Positions 1 through 24,911 of a stretch of DNA of 64,000 bases are shown here, piece by piece. The stretch comes from TPA_inf: Saccharomyces (Eukaryota). The first letter of the stretch is position 1. Every line of letters begins with the position of its first letter. The notes beneath the pieces are model-generated. The model ran no database searches. It was not told where the DNA came from and saw nothing but the letters and a program-made list of their open reading frames with translations. The position numbers and the translations under genes are program-made. The stretch lies in NCBI GenBank assembly GCA_000146045.2, contig BK006938.2, positions 864,001-928,000 of the forward strand, read 5' to 3'.

Positions 1-708
1 TCTGTACCTATGGCCCCAGATACGTTCAATGTTAAGCCCAGCGGTACAATAACGGGGAACAAAGTAAATGTAGAACTGTTAAAAATCGAACTAAGCGGTC
101 AAAACGCCGATGGCGCTATTACGAATATATCTCCTGGTTACAGTAACGCAGCGATCTCTTCTTCAAATTCGACAGATGAATCATCCTTCGATTTGAACAA
201 CATCCTATCTTCAATGCAACAAAAGCACGCGGAAAAATCATTTGCCAAATCCATGCAAGGGGTGAATGAACAAATTCCAGCGAATGACGTCTGCCATCAA
301 GCCCAGAGGCCAATGCAAGGTGGTCTGTATTCATCACAGCAACCTTCATCGATGTCTTCATTAAACTCCGCGTATCAGAATGCCTCGATGCCTCCATCTG
401 CCTCCATGGTATCCTATCCCTATCCTTTTTTGAACCAGCAGGGGCAAGGGGTCTTTCCGCCTTATAATGCACAAAATTTACAATGGCAGAGCGAAGCTTA
501 CTCATTAAAGTCAATGAATTTTGCAAATCCAACGTGGCTAGGTGACCAGTACCAGACATCTGCGCCGTCGTCAGCATATGCGCAAGCGCAACGGCAAATG
601 TTTCAACAACCTATGCAGCAAGATGTGGGGAAGTACATGCAATTTCCTTTTGACGCCCAAAGCAACACGGACAGCATGAGGGGAAACAGTCGGAATAATA
701 TGTTTTAA
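1..708 (+). CDS. EBS1: 3' (C-terminal) part of an ORF that is open from base 1. Q/S/N/P-rich low-complexity tail ending ...GNSRNNMF*. Position upstream of and convergent with UME6 suggests EBS1 (YDR206W).
   Basis: Reading frame is open from position 1 to the stop at 706-708. Identity is inferred from synteny with UME6, which I recognise confidently; I do not recall the EBS1 C-terminus itself. Confidence 0.55.
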   Translation, partial: SVPMAPDTFNVKPSGTITGNKVNVELLKIELSGQNADGAITNISPGYSNAAISSSNSTDESSFDLNNILSSMQQKHAEKSFAKSMQGVNEQIPANDVCHQAQRPMQGGLYSSQQPSSMSSLNSAYQNASMPPSASMVSYPYPFLNQQGQGVFPPYNAQNLQWQSEAYSLKSMNFANPTWLGDQYQTSAPSSAYAQAQRQMFQQPMQQDVGKYMQFPFDAQSNTDSMRGNSRNNMF

Positions 709-868
709 TATTGTTCGTTTTTTATCATAGTTTTTCAAATCTTCATATGAATACTAGGTAGAAATTTGGCTTATCAGTACGAATGAATTACAGTTTGACT
801 GATTTGTACACGAGAATTGACGTATAACTTCTTTTGAAAGTCTTTGAAATTACATGGTAGTACATACA

Positions 869-889
869 TATATATATATATATATATAT
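869..889. repeat. (TA)n dinucleotide microsatellite of about 10 units in the EBS1/UME6 convergent 3' intergenic region
   Basis: Run of tatata... read directly at 869-889. Confidence 0.9.
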
Positions 890-1011
890 GTTATATTATT
901 GTTAATTAAATATTATTATGCGTATTTTCCTTTTCTTTATTAGTATAGTATTAATGACAGTAATAATAATAATAATAGTAACAATATCTCTTTTTTTTTT
1001 TCAGTGAGCTT

Positions 1012-3522: not shown

Positions 3523-4223
3523 CGTGAGTTAAGGTCCATGCAAATGGTTTGAGTGCGGTAGTGTCCTAGTTCCTGTGCGCTGTGCGAAGGTGGGCGCTTC
3601 TTACGATCACTGGTCTCTTGTCCTTGTCCTCTATGTTCTTTTCATTTTTCTTTTTGACGGCGGCAGTTTCCGCCTGGCATTGGTGAAAAGGCGCCTTGAA
3701 GCACGGCGGACGTGTCACCCGGACCGAAACAGAAGAGAAGTAGCGCAGTCTTGGCAATTATAGGATGCCCGAAATCCAACGTGCATTCTATTCTCGTGAT
3801 TATTCTCGTGATTTCGTGTGCAACCAATGGACTTTAAAAACTGCGCTCTACTACTTGTAGCAATGCATGTTTTGGGCAAGTGGGGTTGAGTGGAGTGTCA
3901 CCTCAGACGACGTGTCGCTTTTGTATATCCGTTTTTACGGACATAAGAACGTGCCGCCCATTCTGGGAAAACAAAACACAGGTTAAAAAAAAAAAGAAAG
4001 GAATGGATGGGGAATGGGACAGAGAGGAAAGATAGAGGTGGAAATAACAAAAGCGTGACAACAAAGAAGCAAATACGGAGGGACAAGCAAAGAAAAAACA
4101 AGGACAGAAACAAAAAATAGGAACAAGAAGTAGCACATTCATAAGCAAGAGAGTACGAAACCTGTTTACACCCCCCGAGACAGTTGCCCTATATCGCTTT
4201 TCCCTATCAATAGTTTCTAACTC

Positions 4224-6563
4224 ATGTCAGTCTTGCGATCACAACCTCCTTCAGTTGTACCGCTACATCTGACAACATCCACCAGTCGCAAAACAGAACA
4301 GGAACCATCGCTATTGCACTCTGCAATAATTGAGCGACATCAAGACCGTTCGGTGCCGAATTCGAATTCGAATCCGGATTCGAACCATCGAATAAAAAAG
4401 GATCGCAATAATCACACTAGCTACCATTCTTCATCGAATTCGGAGTCAAACATGGAAAGTCCTCGCTTGTCAGATGGTGAGTCTTCCACTCCGACCTCTA
4501 TTGAAGAGTTAAACCCAACAATAAATAATTCGAGGCTGGTGAAGAGAAACTACTCAATATCAATTGATCCTTTGCATGACAACAGCAATAATAATACGGA
4601 TGATGATCATCCAAACACCATAACTTCTCCCCGACCAAATAGCACTAGTAACAAGGAAATGCAGAAATATAGTTTTCCCGAAGGTAAGGAGTCGAAGAAA
4701 ATAACAACACCCTCGTTAAACTCGAATAATTGTTTGGATTTGGACAATTCCAGTCTTGTTCACACAGATTCGTATATACAAGACTTAAATGACGATCATA
4801 TTTTACTAAACAAGCGCGTTTCGAGGCGATCTTCCAGAATATCGGCAGTAACAGCAACTTCCACGACAATTAAGCAAAGAAGAAATACTCAGGATTCAAA
4901 CCTGCCCAATATTCCCTTTCACGCTTCCAAGCATTCTCAAATTCTACCTATGGATGATTCAGATGTAATAAAATTGGCCAATGGAGATACCAGCATGAAA
5001 CCAAATTCTGCTACTAAAATTAGTCACTCAATGACTTCTTTGCCTCTTCACCCACTTCCACAACCTTCTCAAAAGTCAAAGCAATATCATATGATATCCA
5101 AATCAACCACTTCTTTGCCGCCAGAGAATGACCACTACTATCAACACAGTCGTGGCACCAACCATAATCACGCTGCTAATGCTGCTGCTGTTAATAATAA
5201 TACTACTACTACTACCGCTGCTACGGGTCTGAAAAGATCAGAGTCTGCAACGGCAGAAATTAAGAAGATGAGACAATCTTTGCTGCATAAAAGAGAAATG
5301 AAAAGGAAAAGAAAAACATTTTTGGTGGATGACGATCGTGTTTTGATCGGTAATAAAGTCAGTGAAGGCCATGTCAACTTTATTATAGCTTATAACATGC
5401 TAACTGGTATTCGTGTCGCAGTGTCACGTTGTTCTGGCATAATGAAACCTTTAACTCCGGCAGACTTTAGATTTACGAAGAAGCTTGCCTTTGATTATCA
5501 CGGAAATGAATTGACCCCTTCTTCTCAGTATGCATTTAAGTTTAAGGACTACTGTCCCGAAGTCTTTAGGGAACTTCGTGCATTATTCGGCTTAGACCCT
5601 GCTGATTATTTGGTTTCGTTAACTTCCAAGTACATTTTGAGTGAGTTGAACTCGCCAGGTAAAAGTGGTTCATTTTTTTATTATTCGAGAGATTACAAAT
5701 ATATTATCAAGACCATACATCATTCTGAGCATATTCATCTGAGAAAGCACATACAAGAATACTATAACCATGTAAGAGACAATCCAAACACTTTGATTTG
5801 TCAATTTTATGGTTTGCATAGAGTGAAAATGCCTATATCGTTTCAAAATAAAATTAAGCATCGGAAAATTTACTTCCTAGTCATGAATAACTTATTTCCA
5901 CCACACTTAGACATTCACATTACTTATGATTTAAAAGGTTCCACATGGGGCCGTTTTACCAATTTGGATAAAGAAAGGTTGGCGAAAGATAGATCATATA
6001 GGCCTGTGATGAAAGATTTAAATTGGCTTGAAGAAGGTCAGAAAATTAAATTCGGTCCATTGAAGAAGAAGACTTTTTTGACACAGCTGAAAAAAGATGT
6101 GGAATTGCTTGCTAAATTGAATACAATGGACTATTCCTTGTTAATTGGCATTCATGACATCAATAAAGCTAAAGAAGACGACTTACAATTGGCGGATACG
6201 GCATCTATTGAGGAGCAACCACAGACTCAAGGACCCATAAGAACCGGTACCGGAACGGTAGTACGACATTTTTTTAGAGAGTTTGAAGGTGGAATTCGAG
6301 CATCTGATCAATTCAACAATGATGTGGATTTGATTTATTACGTGGGGATAATCGATTTCTTGACTAATTACTCAGTTATGAAGAAATTAGAAACGTTTTG
6401 GAGAAGTCTACGCCATGATACCAAGTTGGTGAGTGCCATACCTCCAAGAGACTACGCCAATAGGTTTTACGAATTCATAGAAGATTCTGTAGATCCTCTG
6501 CCCCAGAAAAAAACTCAATCGTCGTATAGAGACGACCCTAACCAGAAAAATTATAAAGACTGA
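4224..6563 (+). CDS. MSS4: Mss4, phosphatidylinositol-4-phosphate 5-kinase, 779 aa
   Basis: 779-aa ORF. C-terminal PIP kinase domain with motifs [31 protein letters not shown] and IIDFLTNY. Long Ser/Asn-rich N-terminus as in Mss4. Confidence 0.93.
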
Positions 6564-7420: not shown

Positions 7421-7766
7421 CGTTGGAACAAGAATTGACCATCGTTCATCTGTTGTTGAAATAAAATTTGAAGTTATTCGTCGTACTAGTATCCTATCAC
7501 ATGCGGTGTAAGAAATCACATTGTATGAGAAGCAATTATCTAATTTAATGGACGCTGAAGTTCAAGAATTGGTAATGTGACAGGATAATTAATTAACAGC
7601 ATATAAAATAAAAGAATAATATTTTTATTATATAAAAATATCGATCACTCTTGTGGATTTCTAAATCCTCGAAGAGAACTTTTAATGCATTCTATATGCC
7701 TAATAATAAAGTCGCTATCGAAAATATAATATCTATGCTTATCTATATTGAGAAATGGATGAAATT
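7421..7766 (+). repeat. Diverged solo delta (Ty1/Ty2 LTR) remnant, + orientation
   Basis: Recognisable but diverged similarity to the delta sequence, for example ...actagtat..tatca.atgcggtgtaagaa...ggatttctaaatcctcgaagagaact.... The terminal TGTTGG is degenerated to cgttggaaca. Confidence 0.45.
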
Positions 7767-7820
7767 TGAGATAATTGTTGGGATTCCATTGTTGACAAAG
7801 GCTATGATATTAGGTGTAAA
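7767..7820 (-). repeat. 3'-terminal 54 bp of an older solo delta (- orientation) that was split by the Ty2 insertion; the other part is at 13780-14044
   Basis: tgagataattgttgggattccattgttgacaaaggctatgatattaggtgtaaa is the reverse complement of a delta 3' end. It joins seamlessly with 13785-14044 once Ty2 and one copy of the 5-bp target duplication are removed. Confidence 0.7.
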
Positions 7821-8152
7821 TGTTGGAATAAAAATCAACTATCATCTACTAACTAGTATTTACGTTACTAGTATATTATCATATACGGTGTTAGAAGATG
7901 ACGCAAATGATGAGAAATAGTCATCTAAATTAGTGGAAGCTGAAACGCAAGGATTGATAATGTAATAGGATCAATGAATATTAACATATAAAACGATGAT
8001 AATAATATTTATAGAATTGTGTAGAATTGCAGATTCCCTTTTATGGATTCCTAAATCCTTGAGGAGAACTTCTAGTATATCTACATACCTAATATTATAG
8101 CCTTAATCACAATGGAATCCCAACAATTACATCAAAATCCACATTCCCAACA
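7821..8152 (+). repeat. Ty2 5' LTR (delta); contains the TYA start codon at 8112
   Basis: Begins TGTTGGAATAAAAATCAACTATC. Directly repeated at 13448. Confidence 0.85.
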
Positions 8153-9428
8153 TGGTAGCGCCTATGCTTCGGTTACTTCTAAGGAAGTCCCATCAAATCA
8201 AGATCCGTTAGCCGTTTCAGCTTCCAATTTACCGGAATTTGATAGAGATTCCACTAAGGTTAATTCTCAAGAAGAGACAACACCTGGGACATCAGCTGTT
8301 CCAGAGAACCATCATCATGTCTCTCCTCAACCTGCTTCAGTACCACCTCCACAGAATGGACAGTACCAACAGCACGGCATGATGACCCCAAACAAAGCTA
8401 TGGCCTCTAACTGGGCACATTACCAACAACCATCTATGATGACGTGTTCACATTATCAAACGTCACCTGCGTATTATCAACCGGACCCACACTATCCGCT
8501 GCCACAGTATATCCCACCGCTGAGTACTTCCTCACCTGATCCAATCGATTCACAGGATCAACACTCTGAAGTACCTCAAGCTAAGACAAAGGTGAGAAAT
8601 AATGTCTTACCACCACACACTTTAACATCAGAAGAAAACTTTTCTACATGGGTTAAATTTTACATCAGATTTTTGAAGAACTCTAATCTCGGTGACATTA
8701 TTCCAAATGACCAGGGTGAAATCAAAAGACAAATGACTTATGAAGAACATGCGTATATATACAATACCTTCCAAGCATTTGCCCCATTTCATTTATTGCC
8801 AACATGGGTAAAACAAATTTTAGAAATTAATTATTCTGACATCCTTACAGTCCTTTGTAAAAGTGTGTCCAAAATGCAAACTAACAATCAAGAATTAAAA
8901 GATTGGATAGCTCTTGCCAACCTTGAGTACAACGGAAGTACATCTGCTGATACATTTGAAATTACAGTCAGCACGATCATTCAAAGGCTAAAAGAAAACA
9001 ATATCAATGTTAGCGACAGATTGGCCTGTCAACTAATACTTAAAGGTCTATCCGGTGATTTCAAATACCTACGTAATCAATATCGTACCAAAACGAACAT
9101 GAAACTTTCCCAATTATTCGCTGAAATTCAATTAATATATGACGAAAATAAAATCATGAATCTAAATAAACCGTCCCAATACAAACAACACAGCGAATAC
9201 AAAAATGTTTCTCGCACATCTCCAAACACGACTAACACGAAGGTTACAACTCGTAATTATCATAGAACAAATAGTTCAAAACCAAGAGCAGCAAAAGCTC
9301 ACAATATTGCTACATCCAGTAAATTCTCAAGGGTGAACAGTGATCACATTAATGAATCAACCGTTTCATCACAATACTTAAGCGATGACAACGAACTTAG
9401 TCTTAGGCCAGCAACAGAAAGAATCTAA
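8112..9428 (+). CDS. TYA: Ty2 TYA (Gag capsid protein), 438 aa
   Basis: [26 protein letters not shown]... Ends ...[10 protein letters not shown] immediately after the frameshift heptamer. Confidence 0.9.
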
Positions 9429-12400
9429 GCCAACACGCACAATAGACTCGAATGACGAACTACCTGATCACCTTCTTATTGATTCAGGAGCTTCGCAAAC
9501 GCTTGTCAGATCAGCCCATTATTTACACCATGCAACACCCAATTCTGAAATAAACATAGTCGATGCTCAAAAACAAGACATTCCTATAAATGCCATTGGT
9601 AATCTTCACTTCAACTTTCAGAACGGCACCAAAACATCAATAAAAGCACTACACACACCAAACATAGCCTATGATCTATTAAGTTTGAGTGAGCTGGCTA
9701 ACCAAAATATTACTGCCTGCTTTACCAGAAACACTTTAGAAAGATCGGATGGTACAGTACTAGCTCCCATAGTCAAACATGGAGACTTTTACTGGTTATC
9801 TAAAAAATACCTAATTCCTTCGCACATTTCAAAGCTAACAATAAACAACGTCAACAAAAGCAAAAGCGTAAATAAATATCCATATCCGTTAATACATCGA
9901 ATGCTTGGACATGCTAACTTCCGAAGTATTCAGAAGTCTCTTAAGAAGAATGCAGTTACATATTTGAAAGAATCGGATATTGAATGGTCTAACGCTAGCA
10001 CATATCAATGTCCTGACTGTCTAATCGGCAAAAGCACGAAACATAGGCATGTCAAAGGATCACGACTAAAGTACCAAGAATCATATGAGCCTTTTCAGTA
10101 CTTGCATACCGATATATTTGGTCCTGTACATCACTTACCGAAAAGTGCACCTTCTTACTTTATATCGTTTACAGATGAGAAAACCAGATTCCAATGGGTG
10201 TACCCATTACACGACCGTCGTGAAGAATCTATCCTCAATGTTTTTACATCGATATTAGCATTTATTAAGAACCAATTCAATGCTCGCGTTCTAGTTATCC
10301 AGATGGATCGTGGCTCCGAGTACACTAACAAAACTCTTCATAAGTTCTTTACGAACAGAGGTATTACTGCATGCTATACAACCACGGCAGATTCTAGAGC
10401 ACACGGTGTCGCTGAACGATTAAATCGTACTTTATTAAACGATTGTCGCACACTGCTTCATTGCAGTGGTCTACCAAATCATCTATGGTTCTCAGCAGTC
10501 GAATTTTCTACTATAATCAGAAATTCATTAGTCTCACCAAAAAACGATAAATCTGCCAGACAACATGCAGGTTTAGCTGGACTGGACATTACTACTATAC
10601 TACCTTTCGGTCAACCGGTTATAGTTAACAACCATAATCCCGACTCGAAAATACATCCTCGTGGCATTCCAGGTTACGCCTTACATCCGTCACGAAACTC
10701 TTATGGCTATATTATCTATCTTCCATCCTTAAAAAAGACAGTAGATACTACCAATTACGTTATATTACAAAACAATCAAACGAAATTGGACCAGTTCGAC
10801 TACGATACACTCACTTTTGATGATGATCTCAATCGTTTAACAGCCCATAACCAATCTTTTATTGAACAAAATGAAACGGAGCAGTCATATGATCAAAATA
10901 CAGAATCTGATCATGACTATCAATCGGAGATTGAAATAAACTCTGATCCTCTAGTGAACGATTTCTCGTCCCAATCATTGAACCCTTTACAATTAGACAA
11001 GGAACCAGTCCAAAAGGTACGTGCACCAAAAGAAGTTGATGCCGACATATCTGAATACAATATTCTTCCATCTACTATACGATCTCGTACACCCCATATC
11101 ATTAATAAAGAGAGTACCGAAATGGGTGGTACCATTGAATCAGATACTACTTCACCTAGACACTCGTCTACCTTCACTGCACGAAACCAAAAGCGACCTG
11201 GTAGTCCCAATGATATGATTGATTTGACCTCACAGGATAGAGTTAATTATGGACTTGAAAACATCAAAACTACACGTTTGGGTGGTACGGAGGAACCATA
11301 TATTCAACGAAATAGTGATACAAATATCAAATACAGGACTACAAATAGTACGCCCTCAATAGATGACCGTTCGTCCAACAGTGAATCCACTACTCCCATC
11401 ATCTCCATAGAAACAAAGGCTGTATGTGATAATACACCCTCCATTGATACGGATCCGCCAGAATATCGATCTTCTGACCATGCGACTCCTAATATAATGC
11501 CTGACAAATCCTCAAAAAATGTTACGGCTGATTCTATTCTTGACGACCTCCCACTTCCTGACTTAACCCATAAATCTCCTACGGACACTTCTGATGTTGC
11601 AAAAGATATTCCACACATACACTCTCGTCAGACTAATTCCAGTTTGGGTGGTATGGATGATTCTAATGTTCTGACTACTACCAAAAGTAAGAAAAGATCA
11701 TTAGAAGATAATGAAACTGAAATTGAGGTATCCCGAGACACATGGAATAATAAGAATATGAGAAGTCTGGAACCACCAAGATCGAAGAAACGCATAAATT
11801 TAATTGCAGCAATAAAAGGAGTGAAATCGATCAAACCAGTTCGAACGACCTTAAGATATGATGAAGCAATTACATATAATAAAGACAACAAAGAAAAAGA
11901 CAGATATGTTGAAGCTTATCATAAAGAAATTAGCCAACTATTGAAAATGAACACTTGGGATACAAACAAATATTATGATAGAAATGACATAGATCCTAAA
12001 AAAGTAATAAACTCAATGTTTATATTTAACAAGAAACGTGATGGTACACACAAAGCTAGATTTGTTGCAAGAGGCGACATTCAACACCCCGATACATATG
12101 ATTCTGATATGCAATCCAATACCGTACATCACTATGCACTGATGACGTCATTGTCAATCGCATTAGACAATGACTATTATATCACACAGCTGGACATATC
12201 CTCTGCTTACTTATATGCTGATATCAAAGAAGAATTATACATAAGACCTCCACCACATTTAGGTTTGAATGATAAGTTACTACGTTTGAGAAAATCACTC
12301 TATGGTTTGAAACAAAGTGGTGCAAACTGGTATGAAACCATTAAATCATATTTAATAAATTGTTGCGACATGCAAGAAGTTCGCGGATGGTCATGCGTAT

Positions 12401-13425
12401 TTAAGAATAGTCAAGTAACAATTTGCTTATTCGTTGACGACATGATTTTATTTAGCAAAGACTTAAATGCAAATAAGAAAATCATAACAACACTCAAGAA
12501 ACAATACGATACAAAGATAATAAATCTGGGTGAAGGTGATAACGAAATTCAGTACGACATACTTGGATTAGAGATCAAATATCAAAGAAGCAAGTACATG
12601 AAATTAGGTATGGAAAAATCCTTGACAGAAAAATTACCCAAACTAAACGTACCTTTGAACCCAAAAGGAAAGAAACTTAGAGCTCCAGGTCAACCAGGTC
12701 ATTATATAGACCAGGATGAACTAGAAATAGATGAAGATGAATACAAAGAGAAAGTGCATGAAATGCAAAAGTTGATTGGTCTAGCTTCATATGTTGGATA
12801 TAAATTTAGATTTGACTTACTATACTACATCAACACACTTGCTCAACATATACTATTCCCCTCTAGGCAAGTTTTAGACATGACATATGAGTTAATACAA
12901 TTCATGTGGGACACTAGAGATAAACAATTAATATGGCACAAAAACAAACCTACCAAGCCAGATAATAAACTAGTCGCAATAAGCGATGCTTCATATGGTA
13001 ACCAACCATATTACAAGTCACAAATTGGTAACATTTTCCTACTCAACGGAAAAGTGATTGGAGGAAAGTCGACAAAGGCTTCGTTAACATGCACTTCAAC
13101 TACAGAAGCAGAAATACACGCAGTCAGTGAAGCTATACCGCTATTGAATAACCTCAGTCACCTTGTGCAAGAACTTAACAAGAAACCAATTATTAAAGGC
13201 TTACTTACTGATAGTAGATCAACGATCAGTATAATTAAGTCTACAAATGAAGAGAAATTTAGAAACAGATTTTTTGGCACAAAGGCAATGAGACTTAGAG
13301 ATGAAGTATCAGGTAATAATTTATACGTATACTACATCGAGACCAAGAAGAACATTGCTGATGTGATGACAAAACCTCTTCCGATAAAAACATTTAAACT
13401 ATTAACTAACAAATGGATTCATTAG
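9385..13425 (+). CDS. TYB: Ty2 TYB (Pol: protease, integrase, reverse transcriptase/RNase H), expressed as a Gag-Pol fusion by +1 ribosomal frameshift
   Basis: Uninterrupted 1346-codon frame overlapping the TYA 3' end by 44 nt. Integrase HHCC and DD35E region ([11 protein letters not shown]...CPDCLIGKS), RT YVDDM motif ([10 protein letters not shown]), RNase H region. Confidence 0.9.
9402..9408 (+). other. Ty +1 programmed frameshift heptamer CUU-AGG-C
   Basis: cttaggc sits in the TYA/TYB overlap. The TYB frame is +1 relative to TYA from this point. Confidence 0.85.
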
Positions 13426-13447
13426 ATCTATTACATTATGGGTGGTA

Positions 13448-13779
13448 TGTTGGAATAAAAATCAACTATCATCTACTAACTAGTATTTACGTTACTAGTA
13501 TATTATCATATACGGTGTTAGAAGATGACGCAAATGATGAGAAATAGTCATCTAAATTAGTGGAAGCTGAAACGCAAGGATTGATAATGTAATAGGATCA
13601 ATGAATATTAACATATAAAACGATGATAATAATATTTATAGAATTGTGTAGAATTGCAGATTCCCTTTTATGGATTCCTAAATCCTTGAGGAGAACTTCT
13701 AGTATATCTACATACCTAATATTATAGCCTTAATCACAATGGAATCCCAACAATTACATCAAAATCCACATTCTCTACA
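13448..13779 (+). repeat. Ty2 3' LTR (delta)
   Basis: TGTTGGAATAAAAATCAACTATC...TCTACA, followed by the duplicated GTAAA. Confidence 0.85.
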
Positions 13780-14044
13780 GTAAAGAATATACTGGAAGTT
13801 CTCCTCGATGATATAGGAATCCTCGAAATGGAATCTATATTTCTACATACTAATATTACGATTGTTCCTCATTCCGTTTTTATATGTTTCATTATCCTAT
13901 TACATTATCAATCCTTGCACTTCAGCTTCCTCTAACTTCGATGACAGCTTCTCATAACTTATGTCATCATCTAACACCGTATATGATAATATATTGATAC
14001 TATAACTATTAGTTGATAGACGATAGTGGATTTTTATTCCAACA
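13780..14044 (-). repeat. 5' 265 bp (in element orientation) of the older solo delta interrupted by Ty2; includes one TSD copy at 13780-13784
   Basis: Reverse complement reads TGTTGGAATAAAAATCCACTATCGTCTATCAACTAATAG...GAGGAGAACTTCCAGTATATTC, a delta sequence. It ends with tattccaaca at 14035-14044. Confidence 0.75.
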
Positions 14045-14089
14045 TATATTCACTCGTTTCTCCGAATGAAAATAAATAACATCTATTGA

Positions 14090-14302
14090 CTATTCCTTTT
14101 TGTTGATATATCATCATATGTGGTGAAAGAAGATGACAAAAAAATTGAGAACAAGAAATGCCAAGGTGGATAAAATAATATGATAATAAGCAACAATATA
14201 TAAAATGAAAGAGGAAATAATATCATCATTACTTAGAAAATACGACTCATCTCTGTGTCCCCTAGGAAAAGTTCAAGTATATCCTAAACCTGATACTATG
14301 GC
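14090..14302 (+). repeat. Diverged, 5'-truncated delta-like fragment between the two Ty elements
   Basis: gatatatcatcatatgtggtgaaagaagatgacaaaaaaattgagaacaag... resembles the delta segment TATATTATCATATACGGTGTTAGAAGATGACGCAAATGATGAGAAATAG but is heavily diverged. Confidence 0.35.
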
Positions 14303-14636
14303 TGAGAAATATGTGGGTAATTAGATAATTGTTGGGATTCCATTGTTGATAAAGGCTATAATATTAGGTATACAGAATATACTAGAAGTTCTCCTCGAGG
14401 ATTTAGGAATCCATAAAAGGGAATCTGCAATTCTACACAATTCTATAAATATTATTATCATCGTTTTATATGTTAATATTCATTGATCCTATTACATTAT
14501 CAATCCTTGCGTTTCAGCTTCCACTAATTTAGATGACTATTTCTCATCATTTGCGTCATCTTCTAACACCGTATATGATAATATACTAGTAACGTAAATA
14601 CTAGTTAGTAGATGATAGTTGATTTTTATTCCAACA
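14303..14636 (-). repeat. Ty1 3' LTR (delta)
   Basis: Plus strand reads tgagaaatatgtgggtaattagataattgttggg...tattccaaca, the reverse complement of a delta. Confidence 0.85.
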
Positions 14637-14658
14637 TACCACCCATAATGTAATAGAT

Positions 14659-17600
14659 CTAATGAATCCATTTGTTTGTTAATAGTTTAAATGTTTTTAT
14701 CGGAAGAGGTTTTGTCATCACATCAGCAATGTTCTTCTTGGTCTCGATGTAGTATACGTATAAATTATTACCTGATACTTCATCTCTAAGTCTCATTGCC
14801 TTTGTGCCAAAAAATCTGTTTCTAAATTTCTCTTCATTTGTAGACTTAATTATACTGATCGTTGATCTACTATCAGTAAGTAAGCCTTTAATAATTGGTT
14901 TCTTGTTAAGTTCTTGCACAAGGTGACTGAGGTTATTCAATAGCGGAATAGCTTCACTGACTGCGTGTATTTCTGCTTCTGTAGTTGAAGTGCATGTTAA
15001 CGAAGCCTTTGTCGACTTTCCTCCAATCACTTTTCCGTTGAGTAGGAAAATGTTACCAATTTGTGACTTGTAATATGGTTGGTTACCATATGAAGCATCA
15101 CTTATTGCGACTAGTTTATTATCTGGCTTGGTAGGTTTGTTTTTGTGCCATATTAATTGTTTATCTCTAGTGTCCCACATGAATTGTATTAACTCATATG
15201 TCATGTCTAAAACTTGCCTAGAGGGGAATAGTATATGTTGAGCAAGTGTGTTGATGTAGTATAGTAAGTCAAATCTAAATTTATATCCAACATATGAAGC
15301 TAGACCAATCAACTTTTGCATTTCATGCACTTTCTCTTTGTATTCATCTTCATCTATTTCTAGTTCATCCTGGTCTATATAATGACCTGGTTGACCTGGA
15401 GCTCTAAGTTTCTTTCCTTTTGGGTTCAAAGGTACGTTTAGTTTGGGTAATTTTTCTGTCAAGGATTTTTCCATACCTAATTTCATGTATTTACCTCTTT
15501 GATATTTGATTTCTAAGCCAAGTATGTCGTACTGAATTTCGTTATCACTTTCACCCAGATTTATTATCTTTGTATCGTATTGTTTCTTGAGTGTTGTTAT
15601 GATTTTCTTATTTGCATTTAAGTCTTTGCTGAACAATATCATATCATCAACGAATAAGCAAATTGTTACTTGACTATTCTTAAATACGCATGACCATCCA
15701 CGAACTTCTTCCATACCACACTGTTTTATCAGGTATGATTTGATAGTTTCGTACCAGTTCGCTCCACTTTGTTTCAATCCATAAAGTGATTTCTTCAAAC
15801 GTATCAACTTATCATTCATTCCTAAATGTGGTGGAGGTCTTATGTATAATTCTTCTTTGATGTCTGCATACAAATATGCCGAAGATATGTCTAATTGTGT
15901 AATATAGTAGTTATTGTCTAATGCAAGTGACAGGGATGTCATCAACGCATAATGATGTACAGTGTTGGATTGCATACCTGTATCGTACGTATCAGGATGC
16001 TGAATGTCACCTCTTGCAACAAATCTAGCTTTATGAGTTCCGTCACGTTTCTTGTTGAAGATAAACATTGAGTTTATTACTCTTTTAGGGTCTATTTCTT
16101 TTCTGTCATAATATTTGTCAGTGTCCCAAGTATTCATTTTCAATAGTTGGTTGACTTCTTTGTGGTATGCTTCGATATATTTTTCCTTTTCTTTAATATC
16201 TTTATTATAGGTGATTGCCTCATCGTATCTTAAAGTTGTCCGTATTGGTTTGATTGATTTTACTGCTTTTACAGCTGCAATCAGGTGAATTCGTTTCTTC
16301 GATCTCGGAGGTTCTAAACTACGCATATTCTTAGTATTCCATGTGTCTCGTGATACCTTAATTTCAGTTTCATTATCTTCTAATGATCTTTTCTTACTGT
16401 TGATAGTAGTATAGGCATTAGAGTCACCAATACCACCCAAACTGGAATTAGTTTGATGAGAATTTATCGGTGGGAGTTCTTTAAATGGGTCAGGGAATTC
16501 GGTAGGAGATTCTGGAGGTAGATCAGGGAGTGGGAGATCAGCGATGATAGATTCCTCGGTATTCTGTTCAGAAACAGTAGTTGGCGTTTTGATAGGAACA
16601 ATATTGTGCGATGAATTATTTTCCGGTGGAGAAGCATCGATTGAAGGTGAACGGTGTATAATCCTTTTCTCAGTCTCTTGGTCACTTATCTGCGGAACAG
16701 TTTTGTTGTTGGTACCACCCGTACTGGATATTGGTACGTTTGTATGATTAGTCTCATTTTCACTGTACGAGTCTGAGTGTCTGAAATCTTTAGATTTACT
16801 GGCGTACGACGACTCATGTGTGTTAGATTGGGACATGGGAGCAAGTAAAGGAACATCTAATCTATGCATACCACCCGAATCGGTACTCTCGATATCGGAA
16901 ATTTGGGGGGTGCTAGATCTCTTCTTAGATGGAAGAATATTAGATTCAGATATGTTGGGGTCAACTTCTCTGGGTGCGCGAATATTGGTTTTAGAAACAC
17001 GTTTCGAATCTTCAGTATGAGTTGACGGGGGTGTGGAATCGGTTGGACTCACAGCTTTTGAAAGGACATTTCTCGGTTGCTCAGGATATAGTTCAATATC
17101 AGATTGAAAGTCATGGTCTGATTCTATGTTAAGATCATTGGATTGTTGGATCTCATTTGACGCAATGAACGATTGATATGAAGCAGTTAAACGGTTTAAG
17201 TCTTCATCGAAAGTGAGTGCGTCGTAATTGAATTGATCTAATCTGGAGTCCTTGCCCTGAAGAATAACATAGTTAGTTGTATCTACTGTCTTCTTTAAGG
17301 ATGGAAGATAGATGATATATCCATAAGAGTTTCGAGACGGATGTAGAGCGTAGCCTGGGATGCCACGAGGATGTATTTTGGAGTTAGGGTTGTGATCATT
17401 GACGATAACAGGTTGACCGAAAGGTAACAAAGTACTGATATCAAGTCCTGCCAAGCCAGCATGTTGTCTTGCAGATTTTTTGCTTTTAGGTGAAGCTAGT
17501 GAATTTCTCACAATAGTAGAAAATTCGATTGCAGAGAACCATAAATGGTTCGGTAAACCACTACATTGCAGTTGAGTACGGCAGTCATCTAATAAGGTAC

Positions 17601-18621
17601 GGTTTAGCCGTTCAGCGACTCCATGTGCTCGGGAATCCGCTGTGGTTGTATAGCATGGAGTTATACCATTTTTTTCAAGGAATTTATGGAGAGTTCTGTT
17701 AGTATACTCAGAACCACGGTCCATTTGTATAACCAAGACACTGGCCTGAAACTGGTTTTTAATAAAAGCTAGTATCGTAGTAAAAACATCGAGGATAGAG
17801 TCCTCGCGACGGTCGTGTAATGGATAAACCCAACGGAATTTTGTTGTCTCATCAGTAAATGAGATGAAATAGGATGGTGCACTATTTGGTAGGTTGTGAA
17901 CTGGACCAAATATGTCAGTATGTAGGTATTGAAAGGGTTCGTATGAATTTTGGTATTTTAGTCGTGAACCTTTGATATGTCTGTGTTTGGTGCTTTTGCC
18001 GATTAAACAATCAGGACATTGATAGTCAATAGCACTAGACCAGTCGACATCTGATTCGTTAAAATACGTGATGGTGTTATTTTTAAGTGAGTATCGAATT
18101 GTCTGTGCATTGGCATGCGCAAGCATTCGATGAATGAAAGGATAAGGATATTTGCGTGTACTTTCACTTGTATGGACATTATTGATGGTGGGTACGGAGA
18201 TATTTGATGGAAGCAAGTACTTTTTAGATACCCAGTAAAAGTCTCCATATTTTACGATAGGTGCAAGTACAGTGCCGTCAGATCGTTCTAAGACGTTTTT
18301 GGTAAAGCATGCTGTGATATCTACTGCAGCCAATTCATTCAAACTGAGTAAGTCATAGGCTATGTTAGGAGTGTGCAATACCTTTATTGATGTTTTGGTG
18401 TTGTCCTGGAAGTGAAATTGTAGGTCACCAATAGCGTTAATTGGTATATTTCTTTTTTGAGCATCAACTACGTTTATGTCAGGATTAGATGATGCTGAGT
18501 GTATGTGATGAGCAGATCTTATAAGGGTTCGTGATGCTCCTGAATCGAGAAGGAGGTGTCCAGGGAGTTCATCATCAGAATGATTAGTATGATTTACTGT
18601 AGATTCAGTAAGTTTCTGGCC
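14659..18621 (-). CDS. TYB: Ty1 TYB (Pol: protease, integrase, RT/RNase H), expressed as Gag-Pol via +1 frameshift at CTTAGGC (reverse complement at 18619-18625)
   Basis: The track ORF 14659-18378 starts at a TTG. I translated the frame upstream by hand and it stays open to the frameshift site ([90 protein letters not shown]). IN, RT and RNase H motifs are present. Confidence 0.88.
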
Positions 18622-19927
18622 TAAGATGAAGGTCGTGCTTATTGTTCAATTGAATCGGTTCAGTAGTTGATTTACTGATGGAATCGTTGTCCGTGCTGGG
18701 AGAGTTAATAGATGTGGATACATTGTGAGCCCTGGCTGTTTTCGATTTCGAATTATTTGTTTTTTGAGGATTCCGAGCTATAACTTTGGGTTTGGTTGTA
18801 TTCGTATAGCTGCGAGAATCATTCTTCTCATCACTCCGATTTCTCCTGTAATTAGGTTTGCTGTTTCTCGATCCCTGTTGTTCTTCATAAATAGCATGGA
18901 TATCTAAGAACAGTTCAGCGACTGTCATATTTAGATGTCGATGACGTGTGTAGCGTAAAAATTTATATTCGCCAGATAGACCTCTCATAATTAATTGGCA
19001 TGCGACCTTGTTATTGATATGAATGCCATTATTGTTCAGTCTGTCGATAATGTTTGTGACTTTTGTTTCAAATGCATCTGCAGGTGTACTGCCATTATAT
19101 TGCAAATTTGCCAGGGTCACAATGTCGTTTGCCTCTTGGGTATCAGATTGCATTTTTTCAATACTTTTGGAAAGAATTTTCATGATATCCGTATAATCAA
19201 CGGATAGGATGTCTTTGACCCAGGTAGGTAGGAATTGAGAGGGAGCAAATATTTGAAAAGTGTTATACAAGAAGGTGAGTTCATCATCAGTGATCTGACG
19301 TACGGGTTTTCCGTTTACTGTCGGAATAATACCACCGAGATTCGAGTTTTGTAAAAATTTGATGTATGTTTTAACCCAATTTGGAAAGTCATTAGGTGAG
19401 GTTAACATTGGTGGTGGTCTGACATATTTTTTAGTGGATGTCATATCAGAGTCCGCTGAGGATGAATCAGTAAATGTATTACCTGACTCAGGTGATGGAG
19501 TGCTCAGAGGCGTTCCAACTGATGATGGATACTGCGGAAACTGTGATTGTGGCCCAGGTGGAAAGTACATAGGCGACATTTGATAAGGTGTATACGGAAT
19601 CATAGATGGGTGTCCGTAAAATGACCAACCAGATGGATTGGCTTGGTTTTGGGTCATCATGCACTGCTGTGGGTACGGCCCATTCTGTGGAGGTGGTACT
19701 GAAGCAGGTTGAGGAGAGGCATGATGGGGGTTCTCTGGAACAGCTGATGAAGCAGGTGTTGTTGTCTGTTGAGAGTTAGCCTTAGTGGAAGCCTTATCAT
19801 ATTCTTGAATTTTGGAAGCTGAAACGTCTAACGGATCTTGATTTGTGTGGACTTCCTTAGAAGTAACCGAAGCACAGGCGCTACCATGAGATATATGTGG
19901 GTAATTAGATAATTGTTGGGATTCCAT
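18605..19927 (-). CDS. TYA: Ty1 TYA (Gag), 440 aa
   Basis: [38 protein letters not shown]... Ends ...[10 protein letters not shown]. Confidence 0.9.
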
Positions 19928-20220
19928 TGTTGATAAAGGCTATAATATTAGGTATACAGAATATACTAGAAGTTCTCCTCGAGGATTTAGGAATCCATAA
20001 AAGGGAATCTGCAATTCTACACAATTCTATAAATATTATTATCATCGTTTTATATGTTAATATTCATTGATCCTATTACATTATCAATCCTTGCGTTTCA
20101 GCTTCCACTAATTTAGATGACTATTTCTCATCATTTGCGTCATCTTCTAACACCGTATATGATAATATACTAGTAACGTAAATACTAGTTAGTAGATGAT
20201 AGTTGATTTTTATTCCAACA
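19887..20220 (-). repeat. Ty1 5' LTR (delta); contains the TYA start
   Basis: Reverse complement begins TGTTGGAATAAAAATCAACTATC and ends ...AATTACCCACATATATCTCA. Confidence 0.85.
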
Positions 20221-20360
20221 ATGGCCTCTTTAACACTAATATCCCGACAATTTTCCCAAAATTCAAAGAATTCTCAGAAAGAGCTATTTTTTTTTTTAAT
20301 AAAATTATTAGTACTAATTCCAGTATAAATAACAATGTTATTTACGTCTCTTTCGAAAAT

Positions 20361-20493
20361 GCTCGTGTAGCTCAGTGGTTAGAGCTTCGTGCTTATAGCA
20401 ACATTCGGTTTCCGAAGTTTCTGTGCCAAAGACCTTTCAAACAGGCCTTTAAAAGCAACGCGACCGTCGTGGGTTCAAACCCCACCTCGAGCA
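20361..20493 (+). tRNA. tI(UAU): tRNA-Ile (anticodon UAU) with a 60-nt intron at 20398-20457; mature length 73 nt
   Basis: I folded it by hand. Acceptor gctcgtg/ctcgagc, D arm gctc-agtggtta-gagc, anticodon stem tcgtg/cgcga with loop c-t-TAT-a, intron immediately 3' of position 37, T arm gtggg-ttcaaac-cccac, discriminator A. The T9 run follows 7 nt downstream. Confidence 0.92.
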
Positions 20494-20726: not shown

Positions 20727-22865
20727 ATGGCTGGAAAAAAGGGACAAAAGAAAAGTGGACTAGGCAACCATGGAAAGAACTCTGATATGGATGTTGAAGA
20801 TCGTCTCCAGGCCGTTGTCTTGACAGACTCTTATGAAACTAGGTTTATGCCACTGACAGCTGTCAAGCCAAGGTGTTTGCTGCCACTGGCTAACGTACCT
20901 CTCATTGAATACACCTTAGAATTTTTGGCTAAGGCTGGCGTACATGAAGTTTTCTTAATTTGCTCTTCTCATGCCAACCAAATTAATGACTATATTGAGA
21001 ATTCTAAGTGGAACTTGCCTTGGTCTCCATTTAAAATTACCACCATTATGTCTCCAGAAGCTAGATGTACGGGTGATGTTATGAGAGATCTAGATAATAG
21101 AGGTATCATTACTGGAGATTTTATTTTAGTCAGTGGTGATGTATTGACTAACATCGATTTCAGCAAAATGCTAGAATTTCACAAAAAAATGCATTTGCAA
21201 GATAAAGATCACATCTCGACAATGTGTTTGAGCAAAGCGAGTACCTATCCAAAAACAAGAACTATTGAGCCTGCCGCATTTGTCTTAGACAAATCCACCA
21301 GTAGGTGTATTTATTACCAAGATTTACCATTACCAAGCTCTAGAGAGAAGACTTCCATTCAGATTGACCCAGAATTGTTGGATAATGTCGATGAATTTGT
21401 CATAAGGAATGACCTCATCGATTGTAGAATTGACATTTGTACATCTCATGTACCTTTGATATTTCAAGAAAATTTTGACTACCAATCATTAAGGACAGAC
21501 TTTGTTAAAGGTGTCATTTCAAGCGATATATTGGGAAAGCATATATATGCCTATTTGACGGACGAATATGCTGTAAGAGTTGAAAGTTGGCAAACTTACG
21601 ACACCATTTCTCAAGACTTTTTAGGTAGATGGTGTTATCCCTTGGTCTTAGACTCTAACATACAGGACGATCAAACGTATTCTTATGAATCAAGACATAT
21701 ATACAAGGAAAAAGACGTTGTTTTGGCCCAATCCTGTAAAATTGGTAAGTGCACTGCAATTGGATCAGGAACAAAAATCGGAGAGGGTACGAAAATTGAG
21801 AATTCCGTGATTGGAAGGAACTGCCAAATCGGTGAAAATATTAGAATCAAGAACAGTTTCATTTGGGATGACTGTATCATCGGAAATAACAGTATAATTG
21901 ACCATTCATTAATTGCCTCTAATGCCACGTTAGGGAGTAATGTACGCCTAAATGATGGCTGTATAATTGGTTTCAACGTTAAAATTGATGATAATATGGA
22001 TTTAGATAGAAACACAAAAATATCTGCCAGTCCATTAAAAAATGCCGGCTCAAGAATGTATGATAATGAAAGCAATGAGCAGTTTGACCAAGACCTTGAT
22101 GATCAGACACTAGCCGTTTCTATTGTTGGAGATAAGGGTGTTGGTTATATTTACGAAAGCGAGGTGTCTGACGATGAAGATAGTTCTACAGAAGCCTGCA
22201 AAGAAATAAACACTTTGAGTAACCAATTAGATGAGTTATACTTAAGTGACGATTCAATTTCTTCCGCCACTAAAAAGACAAAGAAAAGAAGAACGATGTC
22301 TGTCAATAGTATATACACGGATAGAGAAGAAATTGATTCTGAATTTGAGGACGAAGATTTTGAGAAAGAAGGTATTGCCACCGTGGAGCGTGCTATGGAA
22401 AACAATCATGATCTTGACACAGCATTATTAGAATTGAACACCTTGAGAATGAGTATGAACGTGACATATCATGAGGTGAGAATAGCAACAATAACTGCAT
22501 TATTGAGAAGAGTTTACCACTTTATTGCAACTCAAACATTAGGTCCCAAGGACGCTGTGGTGAAGGTTTTTAATCAGTGGGGACTGTTGTTCAAGAGACA
22601 AGCCTTTGATGAAGAAGAGTATATTGATTTGATGAACATCATAATGGAAAAAATTGTAGAACAGAGTTTTGACAAACCGGATTTGATTCTATTTAGTGCA
22701 TTGGTTTCTCTATACGATAATGACATAATTGAGGAGGATGTCATTTATAAATGGTGGGATAATGTTTCTACTGACCCTCGCTATGATGAAGTCAAGAAAT
22801 TAACTGTAAAGTGGGTTGAGTGGTTACAGAATGCTGACGAAGAATCTTCCTCAGAAGAGGAATAA
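20727..22865 (+). CDS. GCD6: Gcd6, catalytic epsilon subunit of translation initiation factor eIF2B, 712 aa
   Basis: 712-aa ORF. N-terminal nucleotidyl-transferase-like region. Left-handed beta-helix hexapeptide repeats (IGKCTAIGSGTKIGEGTKIENSVIGRNCQIGENIRIKNS...). Acidic W2 C-terminus ...NADEESSSEEE. Confidence 0.92.
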   Translation: MAGKKGQKKSGLGNHGKNSDMDVEDRLQAVVLTDSYETRFMPLTAVKPRCLLPLANVPLIEYTLEFLAKAGVHEVFLICSSHANQINDYIENSKWNLPWSPFKITTIMSPEARCTGDVMRDLDNRGIITGDFILVSGDVLTNIDFSKMLEFHKKMHLQDKDHISTMCLSKASTYPKTRTIEPAAFVLDKSTSRCIYYQDLPLPSSREKTSIQIDPELLDNVDEFVIRNDLIDCRIDICTSHVPLIFQENFDYQSLRTDFVKGVISSDILGKHIYAYLTDEYAVRVESWQTYDTISQDFLGRWCYPLVLDSNIQDDQTYSYESRHIYKEKDVVLAQSCKIGKCTAIGSGTKIGEGTKIENSVIGRNCQIGENIRIKNSFIWDDCIIGNNSIIDHSLIASNATLGSNVRLNDGCIIGFNVKIDDNMDLDRNTKISASPLKNAGSRMYDNESNEQFDQDLDDQTLAVSIVGDKGVGYIYESEVSDDEDSSTEACKEINTLSNQLDELYLSDDSISSATKKTKKRRTMSVNSIYTDREEIDSEFEDEDFEKEGIATVERAMENNHDLDTALLELNTLRMSMNVTYHEVRIATITALLRRVYHFIATQTLGPKDAVVKVFNQWGLLFKRQAFDEEEYIDLMNIIMEKIVEQSFDKPDLILFSALVSLYDNDIIEEDVIYKWWDNVSTDPRYDEVKKLTVKWVEWLQNADEESSSEEE

Positions 22866-23231: not shown

Positions 23232-24911
23232 ATGTCCCAATTATTCAATAACTCGCGCTCAGATACCCTTTTCCTAGGAGGTGAAAAAATAAGTGGTGAT
23301 GATATTCGTAATCAGAATGTTTTGGCTACTATGGCTGTGGCTAACGTCGTCAAGTCATCTTTAGGCCCCGTTGGACTGGACAAAATGCTTGTTGATGACA
23401 TTGGTGATTTTACCGTCACCAACGATGGTGCCACTATTTTGTCTTTGTTAGATGTTCAACATCCAGCTGGAAAAATTTTAGTAGAATTGGCTCAACAACA
23501 GGACAGAGAAATTGGTGACGGTACTACTAGTGTTGTTATTATTGCTTCTGAGTTGTTGAAAAGAGCTAATGAATTAGTCAAAAATAAGATTCATCCAACT
23601 ACCATCATAACTGGTTTCAGGGTTGCATTAAGAGAGGCTATTCGTTTTATAAATGAAGTTCTTTCCACAAGTGTTGACACTTTAGGGAAAGAGACGTTAA
23701 TTAATATAGCCAAGACTAGTATGTCCTCTAAGATCATTGGTGCTGACTCTGATTTTTTCAGCAATATGGTTGTAGATGCTCTTTTGGCTGTTAAGACGCA
23801 AAATTCCAAAGGAGAAATCAAGTATCCCGTAAAGGCTGTCAATGTGTTGAAAGCTCATGGTAAATCTGCCACTGAATCACTGTTGGTGCCAGGTTATGCT
23901 TTGAATTGTACAGTTGCTTCTCAAGCAATGCCTAAACGTATCGCCGGTGGCAATGTGAAAATCGCATGTTTGGATTTGAACTTGCAGAAAGCTCGTATGG
24001 CAATGGGTGTTCAAATCAACATTGATGATCCGGAACAATTGGAGCAAATCCGTAAACGTGAAGCTGGTATTGTTTTGGAAAGAGTGAAGAAGATCATTGA
24101 TGCTGGTGCTCAAGTTGTGTTAACCACCAAAGGTATTGATGATTTATGCTTAAAGGAGTTCGTTGAAGCTAAGATAATGGGTGTAAGACGCTGTAAGAAG
24201 GAAGATTTGAGAAGAATTGCACGCGCTACAGGCGCCACTTTGGTTAGTTCTATGTCTAACTTAGAAGGTGAGGAAACTTTCGAAAGCAGTTATTTAGGTC
24301 TTTGTGATGAAGTAGTTCAAGCCAAATTTTCTGATGATGAGTGTATCTTAATTAAGGGTACTTCTAAACATTCATCTTCTTCGATCATTTTAAGAGGTGC
24401 CAACGATTATTCTTTAGATGAGATGGAACGTTCTTTGCACGATTCTCTTTCTGTTGTCAAAAGAACGCTTGAAAGTGGAAATGTTGTCCCCGGTGGAGGT
24501 TGCGTTGAAGCCGCATTGAATATCTATTTGGACAATTTTGCCACCACAGTTGGTTCTCGTGAACAGTTAGCTATTGCTGAGTTTGCAGCTGCATTATTAA
24601 TCATTCCAAAAACTTTAGCTGTTAACGCTGCCAAGGATTCTAGTGAATTAGTTGCAAAATTAAGGTCCTACCATGCCGCTAGTCAAATGGCCAAGCCAGA
24701 GGACGTTAAGAGGAGAAGCTACAGAAATTACGGCCTAGATTTGATTAGAGGTAAAATTGTGGACGAGATTCACGCTGGTGTTCTTGAGCCAACCATAAGC
24801 AAAGTCAAATCCTTGAAATCAGCATTGGAGGCTTGTGTAGCAATTCTAAGAATTGATACAATGATTACAGTGGATCCAGAACCACCCAAAGAAGATCCGC
24901 ACGATCATTGA
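23232..24911 (+). CDS. TCP1: Tcp1/Cct1, alpha subunit of the cytosolic chaperonin CCT, 559 aa
   Basis: Chaperonin signature [20 protein letters not shown] loop, 559 aa. N-terminus [30 protein letters not shown]. Confidence 0.93.

Follow-up and report, generated by a model that had tools for sequence, protein, structure and literature searches.

YDRCTy1-2 (Ty1-DR3), a 5918-bp long terminal repeat (LTR) retrotransposon on the minus strand of chromosome IV of Saccharomyces cerevisiae S288C, combines Ty1-type and Ty2-type sequence. We conclude, with a probability of ca. 0.9, that it is an intact, recently inserted member of the known class of S. cerevisiae Ty1/2 hybrids. The element lies inverted in the 64,000-nucleotide (nt) stretch of DNA that was analyzed, here called the window, which exact protein look-ups identified as part of S288C chromosome IV, from MSS4 to GCD6. 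Its 440-amino-acid (aa) Gag was an exact match to UniProt entry Q12441 ('Transposon Ty1-DR3 Gag'), and its 1755-aa Gag-Pol to Q99231 ('Transposon Ty1-DR3 Gag-Pol'); we take the gene names to be YDR210C-C/D. In the published annotation, YDRCTy1-2 is placed at chromosome IV 878301-884218 (minus strand) and a neighboring Ty2, YDRWTy2-2, at 871819-877777 (plus strand) (Carr 2012 File S2, PMC3511429), and both entries fit the same offset (window position = chromosome IV coordinate - 863998). YDRCTy1-2 is labelled 'Full, Active, Polymorphic' there and was found in 4 of 30 strains (Carr 2012, PMC3511429). The 438-aa Gag of YDRWTy2-2 matched Q03483 ('Ty2-DR2') in an exact look-up. The two elements are arranged tail-to-tail, separated by a 523-bp spacer that consists mostly of old solo-LTR fragments. 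Positions given below as nt are those of the YDRCTy1-2 element, unless LTR or window positions are named.

A Ty1/Ty2 recombinant structure, with a Ty1 5' end and a Ty2 3' pol and U3, had been claimed in an initial annotation of the window, and was borne out here by sliding identity against four Ty1 and three Ty2 elements and by sites fixed between the families. When YDRCTy1-2 was compared with YDRWTy2-2, LTR nt 1-239 were 100% identical, and mismatches began at LTR nt 240, the next being at nt 260. Identity in gag, and in pol as far as nt ~4520, was only 39-90% per 100 nt. Eleven mismatches followed in nt 4522-4731, and there were just three in the 1092 nt from 4732 to 5823. Comparison with the neighbor alone cannot assign parental contributions, and independent Ty1 and Ty2 references were therefore brought in. 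The Ty1 references were L001 (a Ty1'-like copy), L002 (from strain YJM789), and L005 and L006 (from another assembly); the Ty2 references were YDRWTy2-2 and contigs L003 and L004. All eight elements (the hybrid, its neighbor, and L001-L006) were aligned, and identity was determined per 100 nt.

Over most of nt 297-3496 and 4313-4512, the hybrid was 99-100% identical to the four Ty1 elements, and 39-90% identical to the three Ty2 elements. In gag, the corresponding values were 98-100% and 44-85%. The relationship was reversed in the part from nt ~4755 through U3, with 97-100% identity to Ty2 and 77-97% to Ty1, and the 5' U3 was only 79-81% identical to Ty1 LTRs. Thus, the sliding-window check proposed in the initial annotation revealed a switch to Ty2-like sequence in the 3' part, not uniform Ty1-like identity. 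At 1338 positions all three Ty2 elements differed from all four Ty1 elements. The hybrid was Ty2-type at all 24 of these fixed sites in U3 (nt 76-234; no Ty1-type and no other sites). Between nt 264 and 4731 it was Ty1-type at 1256 of 1265 sites (seven were Ty2-type and two neither), and between nt 4755 and 5698 it was Ty2-type at 48 sites and Ty1-type at one (none other). Of the 24 fixed sites in the 3' TYB segment (nt 4755-5544), 23 were Ty2-type. Chance is excluded as the source of this distribution (Fisher exact p = 6e-79 for the middle versus the 3' segment, and 5e-45 for the middle versus U3). These sequence comparisons support a structure in which Ty1 R-U5, gag, and ca. 80% of pol are joined to a Ty2 3' pol, with Ty2 U3 in both LTRs; the Ty1 part includes the primer-binding site and the coding regions for protease, integrase, and most of the reverse transcriptase (RT).

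The data agree with the initial description of TYA as a 440-aa, Ty1-type product: besides the exact Ty1-DR3 Gag match, there is the 98-100% nucleotide identity to the Ty1 references. Both peptide pairs quoted in that description are present in the sequences. Gag-Pol residues 1487-1725 follow the Ty2 pattern, unlike those of Ty1-JR2, JR1, GR2, ER1, and H, and residue 1487 is the first Ty2-diagnostic one. A Pol C-terminus shared with Ty2 had also been reported. From DMILFSK (aa 1428) onwards, only two differences (S1460G and G1478S) separate the two proteins, but this part is 328 aa long, not ~400. Similarly, the Ty2 tract does start in 3' pol, but the specifically Ty2-derived part begins later than had been thought, within nt 4732-4754 (~aa 1480). 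The tract is ~270-330 aa long. A real recombination signature, with roughly correct breakpoints, was thus recoverable from raw sequence.

The pol crossover falls between the last Ty1-type fixed site, at nt 4731, and the first Ty2-type fixed site, at nt 4755. The 23-nt stretch between them, nt 4732-4754 (TACATGAAATTAGGTATGGAAAA), is identical in both parents. The second junction, in the LTR, is confined to LTR nt 234-260; R starts at LTR nt 241, with GAGGAGAAC, and from LTR nt 260 on, all informative sites are Ty1-type. The earlier observation that the first ~240 bp (U3) of both LTRs are Ty2-like and that divergence starts at R was accurate, with nt 1-239 identical and GAGGAGAACTTCTAGTATAT starting at LTR nt 241. 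The Ty2-derived part covers the last ~810 nt of pol, or ~1.1 kb when the polypurine tract and U3 are included. Identity with the neighbor first rises at nt ~4520, but a crossover there was considered and rejected. In the patch at nt 4522-4698 the hybrid matches the Ty2 copies, and so do L001, L005, and L006, whose LTRs are pure Ty1 and not hybrid; only L002 differs. Five Ty1-type sites come next, at nt 4704-4731. Since it is common to Ty1 elements without a hybrid LTR and is followed by Ty1-type sites, the patch is not part of the hybrid's own Ty2 tract.

For some of the Ty1 references, identity is lower in two regions, nt 3497-3812, which is hypervariable, and nt 3913-4312. In the former (window 16409-16724, encoding the integrase C-terminal region), the hybrid is identical to L005, and 70-95% identical to L001, L002, and L006; the differences correspond to SHNIV versus LHHVV protein variants. 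This pattern shows sublineage mosaicism within Ty1 itself.

YDRCTy1-2 has the structural features of an autonomous Ty1/copia LTR retrotransposon, including LTR ends, a 5-bp target-site duplication (TSD), a primer-binding site, a polypurine tract, a gag/pol +1 frameshift, and integrase and RT domains. Its LTRs are 334 bp each and have TG...CA ends, with a single difference between them, in U5. The primer-binding site, TGGTAGCGCC, is that of Ty1/Ty2, complementary to initiator tRNA-Met. Frames fused at the CTTAGGC heptamer reproduce the 1755-aa database Gag-Pol exactly, and near-identical products or open reading frames (ORFs) carry records of the Pfam domains TYA, rve, and RVT_2. By exact look-up, this Gag-Pol falls in a cluster of 321 members, whereas a word-indexed homology search listed just two matches, which suggests that long queries from repeat families can be strongly under-reported by such a search. 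The element is not a pure Ty2, as its Gag is 440 aa long (438 aa in Ty2) and its R-U5 is Ty1-type. Its ORFs are intact and its LTRs nearly identical.

Ty1/2 hybrids were reportedly described by Jordan & McDonald in 1998 (J Mol Evol 47:14) and in 1999 (Mol Biol Evol 16:419). They are also discussed in three later papers (PMC3511429, PMC4022208, and PMC7055915). One counts '18 recombinant Ty1/2 elements' in two groups (Carr 2012, PMC3511429). According to another, 18 of the 32 Ty1 copies in S288C are hybrids, in which a segment of TYB and 240 bp of U3 are from Ty2 (Bleykasten-Grosshans 2013, PMC4022208), and the third shows sliding-window plots of such hybrids (Czaja 2020, PMC7055915). All tested features of the class are present in YDRCTy1-2: gag and 5' pol are Ty1, the 3' TYB is Ty2, and in both LTRs ~240 bp of Ty2 U3 precede a Ty1 R-U5. 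It belongs to the 'long' type, in which the TYB segment from Ty2 exceeds 300 bp (PMC4022208), and we found no categorical difference between it and the class. The canonical Ty1/Ty1' recombinants (Czaja 2020, PMC7055915) are similar in being mosaics of Ty1-related lineages found by sliding-window divergence. Unlike in YDRCTy1-2, whose gag is purely canonical Ty1 and whose exchange is in 3' pol and U3, their exchanges are in gag and affect copy-number control. The Ty1/2 hybrid phenomenon is already known, and YDRCTy1-2 is an ordinary case of it. Two small additions are made here: its crossover has been placed to a 23-nt interval, and the adjacent Ty2 is disfavored as the donor. Hybrids of this kind, which make up over half of S288C 'Ty1' copies, illustrate how regulatory (U3) and enzymatic (RT/RNase H) modules are exchanged between retrotransposon families during reverse transcription.

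The initial annotation had also proposed a comparison with other hybrid copies, and it proved informative, since the LTR turned out to be common to YDRCTy1-1 and the pol junction to YARCTy1-1. Diagnostic 40-mers were looked up in the alignments of S288C copies on chromosomes I-VI (Carr 2012 File S7, PMC3511429). Among these copies, a 40-mer spanning the chimeric junction (nt 4722-4761) was found only in YDRCTy1-2 and in YARCTy1-1, on chromosome I. In the LTR alignment (Carr 2012 File S6), YDRCTy1-2 is in a group of ~12 LTRs with a full Ty2 U3, and its 5' LTR is identical, over aligned columns, to the 5' LTR of YDRCTy1-1, an element located 227 kb away (chromosome IV 645,508-651,417) and annotated as nested in a Ty3 LTR (Carr 2012, PMC3511429). 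In a second group of six LTRs, the sequence is Ty2-type only to ~nt 170. YDRCTy1-1 shares the variants G4587, G4903, and T5274 with YDRCTy1-2, but is Ty2-type at nt 4726-4731, its pol junction being further upstream. YARCTy1-1 has the same junction 40-mer and T at nt 5274, but its LTR, from the second group, is Ty2-type only to ~nt 170 and then Ty1-type. The pairing of the nt 4732-4754 junction with a full-U3 hybrid LTR was seen in no other copy queried on these chromosomes. Because YDRCTy1-1 and YARCTy1-1 differ in these ways, the hybrids form a recombining network rather than one clone. The LTR and junction are shared with other loci, both LTRs of YDRCTy1-2 are hybrid and near-identical, and the TSD is intact. 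We conclude from these comparisons that the mosaic existed before YDRCTy1-2 inserted, and that the element arrived by ordinary retrotransposition.

The most likely origin of the mosaic appears to be recombination during reverse transcription. A Ty1 RNA and a Ty2 RNA would have been packaged in one virus-like particle, and minus-strand strong-stop DNA would have been made on the Ty1 5' R-U5. Transfer of this DNA to the 3' R of the Ty2 RNA would have placed a junction exactly at U3/R, and RT would then have copied Ty2 U3 and 3' pol before switching back to the Ty1 RNA within the 23-nt identity at nt 4732-4754, where the conserved RT/RNase H region is encoded. The resulting mosaic would have reached its present site by ordinary retrotransposition. 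Ty2 U3 is present in both LTRs because retrotransposition copies the single 3' U3 into both, and the position of the LTR junction would follow because strand transfer puts it at U3/R. Retroviral copy-choice, for example in inter-subtype recombinants of human immunodeficiency virus type 1 (HIV-1), also involves co-packaged RNAs, strand transfer at R, and switching in conserved regions, and gives rise to mosaic lineages. The proposed mechanism is alike in the two cases, but YDRCTy1-2 is an intracellular Ty1/copia element with no envelope and no infection, and the Ty parents belong to two different element families within a single genome. The published view likewise favors an origin by recombination in heterozygous particles, at the stage of reverse transcription (PMC4022208).

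Several observations weigh against the reading proposed here. The Ty2 tract contains a single Ty1-type site, nt 5544. At nt 4213-4312 (window 15909-16008), the hybrid is a poor match to all references, with 88-89% identity to Ty1 and 81% to Ty2; Ty1-type and Ty2-type sites alternate in this interval, which may represent a third haplotype or a small exchange of older date. Two Ty2 references, L003 and L004, are metagenome (MEGAHIT) contigs and are possibly consensus-like. The different pol junction of YDRCTy1-1 and the different LTR mosaic of YARCTy1-1 indicate that the history of the hybrids was not one simple event. A published table naming YDRCTy1-2 as a hybrid was not found, and its class membership is based on the sequence tests described here and on the element's place in the Carr 2012 LTR alignment. 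Finally, a DNA-level route yields the same product (U3 from the RNA 3' end and R-U5 from the RNA 5' end), and sequence cannot separate the two routes.

According to that DNA-level alternative, ectopic homologous recombination or conversion mediated by complementary DNA (cDNA) took place between a chromosomal Ty1 and a Ty2 at an ancestral locus, so that the Ty1 lost its own 3' end to Ty2 sequence, and transcription and retrotransposition then spread the hybrid. Ectopic Ty recombination occurs (PMC2996329; PMC3616911), and the mosaic network among the hybrids fits repeated recombination of any kind. On the other side, the LTR junction is exactly at the U3/R boundary, which is the automatic outcome of strand transfer, and the published view favors reverse transcription (PMC4022208). 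While neither of these points decides the matter, we regard a DNA-level origin as rather unlikely.

Gene conversion from the adjacent Ty2 had been offered in the initial annotation as an alternative to a template RNA with a Ty1 5' end and a Ty2 3' end. A pure Ty1 would have inserted at this site, and its 3' pol and U3 would later have been converted from the inverted YDRWTy2-2. The elements lie tail-to-tail, 523 bp apart, share 1092 nt with three mismatches, and have been mapped as HS3, a hotspot of mitotic recombination (St. Charles & Petes 2013, PMC3616911). The G at nt 4903 is common to the hybrid and YDRWTy2-2, and is not present in the two metagenome Ty2 contigs; it is, however, also found in YDRWTy2-3 and YDRCTy1-1, so the variant is not private to the hybrid and its neighbor. 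Other variants of the neighbor are absent from the hybrid. Of the S288C copies searched, none but YDRWTy2-2 itself has its four-substitution haplotype at nt 4575-4590, and the hybrid's version of this segment is also present in YDRCTy1-1, YDRWTy1-4, and other copies. At nt 5274, YDRWTy2-2 has A, but the hybrid has T, like YDRCTy1-1 and the Ty2 copies of chromosomes III and VI. In addition, the 5' LTR, 5.3 kb distant and beyond Ty1-type sequence, has a Ty2-type U3 as well, with the same U3/R end, which would require a second matching conversion tract, and the same LTR and the same pol junction are found at unlinked loci. The sequence data thus disfavor YDRWTy2-2 as the donor, and conversion at this site seems very improbable.

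The opposite direction of transfer, in which 3' pol and U3 were originally Ty1 and were acquired by Ty2, so that YDRCTy1-2 would be a pure Ty1 and the Ty2 copies the hybrids, deserves just as little credence. Pairwise comparison with YDRWTy2-2 alone gives no direction. The C-terminal protein pattern of the hybrid was seen in every Ty2 examined; Ty1-JR2 is fully different, and other S288C Ty1 elements are mosaics with varied switch points. At the DNA level, the segment is in all Ty2 copies examined and in only some Ty1 copies, with a diverged version (77-90%) in the Ty1' element (L001) and other Ty1 elements. The window itself contains an old Ty1-type solo LTR, the larger fragment of which (13780-14044) shares 94% identity with Ty1-type LTRs, against 79% with the Ty2/hybrid LTR. 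This solo LTR, interrupted by the Ty2, is fixed in all surveyed strains (Carr 2012, PMC3511429). Since a fixed ancient solo LTR is Ty1-type, the Ty1-type U3 is the resident form, and the Ty2-type U3 the newcomer on a Ty1 backbone. Ty2 has, moreover, been inferred to be a recent arrival in S. cerevisiae from S. mikatae, and Ty2 LTRs from different species group together (Carr 2012, PMC3511429). Together, these sequence relationships support an entry of Ty2 sequence into a Ty1 backbone. An assembly artefact, that is, a chimeric join of Ty1 and Ty2 reads, can practically be dismissed: repeats are prone to mis-assembly and two of the Ty2 references are short-read metagenome contigs, but both LTRs, the TSD, and the intact 1755-aa frame are mutually consistent, Gag-Pol exactly matches curated S288C entries, the same junctions recur elsewhere in the S288C reference, and polymerase chain reaction (PCR) and array work on this Ty pair has been published (PMC3616911).

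Because the Ty2-derived tract of YDRCTy1-2 faces the Ty2 in the tail-to-tail layout, a ~1.1-kb inverted repeat of 99.7% identity is created next to the spacer. It is the inner part of a 2.1-kb Ty2/hybrid inverted repeat (window 11602-13707 and 14377-16482) that is 93% identical overall. A pure Ty1 in place of the hybrid would give ~80-90% identity to the facing Ty2, and the hybrid tract may contribute to HS3. A second tail-to-tail inverted Ty2(W)/Ty1(C) pair, YDRWTy2-3 and YDRCTy1-3, at chromosome IV ~981-992 kb, is hotspot HS4 (PMC3616911). It is ~100 kb from the pair studied here, and YDRCTy1-3 has a full Ty2-U3 hybrid LTR in the Carr 2012 alignment but is Ty1-type at nt 4722-4761. Two modest readings are possible, though together less likely than not: YDRCTy1-2 may be a second-generation recombinant, which combined a YARCTy1-1-type pol junction with a YDRCTy1-1-type full-U3 LTR, and the hybrid tract may be what makes HS3 hot. 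The former, if true, would mean continuing recombination among hybrid sublineages and not one founding event.

The features of the element and its surroundings are collected in Table 1.

Table 1. Window positions of YDRCTy1-2, its parts, and neighboring features.
Feature	Position in window	Strand	Remarks
MSS4 ORF	4224-6563		Exact protein look-up
Old solo LTR	7749-7820 and 13780-14044	-	One delta, split by Ty2 insertion
YDRWTy2-2 (Ty2-DR2), neighboring complete Ty2	7821-13779	+	5959 bp; TSD GTAAA
Second solo-LTR remnant	14064-14302	+	Far more decayed (~65% identical); abuts hybrid insertion site
TSD of YDRCTy1-2, ATGGC	14298-14302 (left) and 20221-20225 (right)		5 bp; intact
YDRCTy1-2, complete Ty1/2 hybrid element	14303-20220	-	LTR pair, TG...CA ends, TSD, exact Gag and Gag-Pol matches
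3' LTR R-U5, Ty1-type	14303-14396	-
Ty2-derived tract	14397-15466	-	TYB 3' end, polypurine tract, and 3' LTR U3
Polypurine tract, TGGGTGGTA	14637-14645	-	Directly 5' of 3' LTR; identical in neighboring Ty2
TYB (pol) part of Gag-Pol	14659-18621	-	Intact to stop codon
Pol crossover interval (nt 4732-4754)	15467-15489	-	23 nt identical in Ty1 and Ty2
Ty2-like patch (nt 4522-4698)	15523-15699	-	Not specific to YDRCTy1-2
TYA (gag), 440 aa, Ty1-type	18605-19927	-	ORF; exact Ty1-DR3 Gag match
+1 frameshift heptamer CTTAGGC	18619-18625	-	Gag frame; element nt 1596
Primer-binding site, TGGTAGCGCC	19877-19886	-	Directly 3' of 5' LTR
5' LTR R-U5 (LTR nt 241-334), Ty1-type	19887-19980	-
5' LTR U3 (LTR nt 1-240), Ty2-type	19981-20220	-	239/239 identical to Ty2-DR2 LTR
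tRNA-Ile gene, anticodon TAT, intron-containing	20361-20493	+	133 nt, then T run; Rfam tRNA match, 49.3 bits
GCD6 ORF	20727-22865		Exact protein look-up
TCP1 ORF	23232-24911		Exact protein look-up

The tRNA-Ile gene begins 140 bp beyond the 5' LTR of YDRCTy1-2, so that the insertion is upstream of the gene. A position upstream of a tRNA gene is the usual target context of Ty1, and this gene is likely the RNA polymerase III (Pol III) target of the YDRCTy1-2 insertion. ARAGORN reported no tRNA anywhere in the window and missed this intron-containing gene, which was found with Rfam. The region upstream of the tRNA gene has been hit by at least four insertions. Proteins that bear a bacterial organism label, Streptococcus uberis (GAA5351190.1 and GAA5349144.1/WP_461254127.1) and Parabacteroides merdae (MTT11453.1), fall in the same 90%-identity cluster as the YDRWTy2-2 proteins, and almost certainly reflect yeast contamination of those assemblies.

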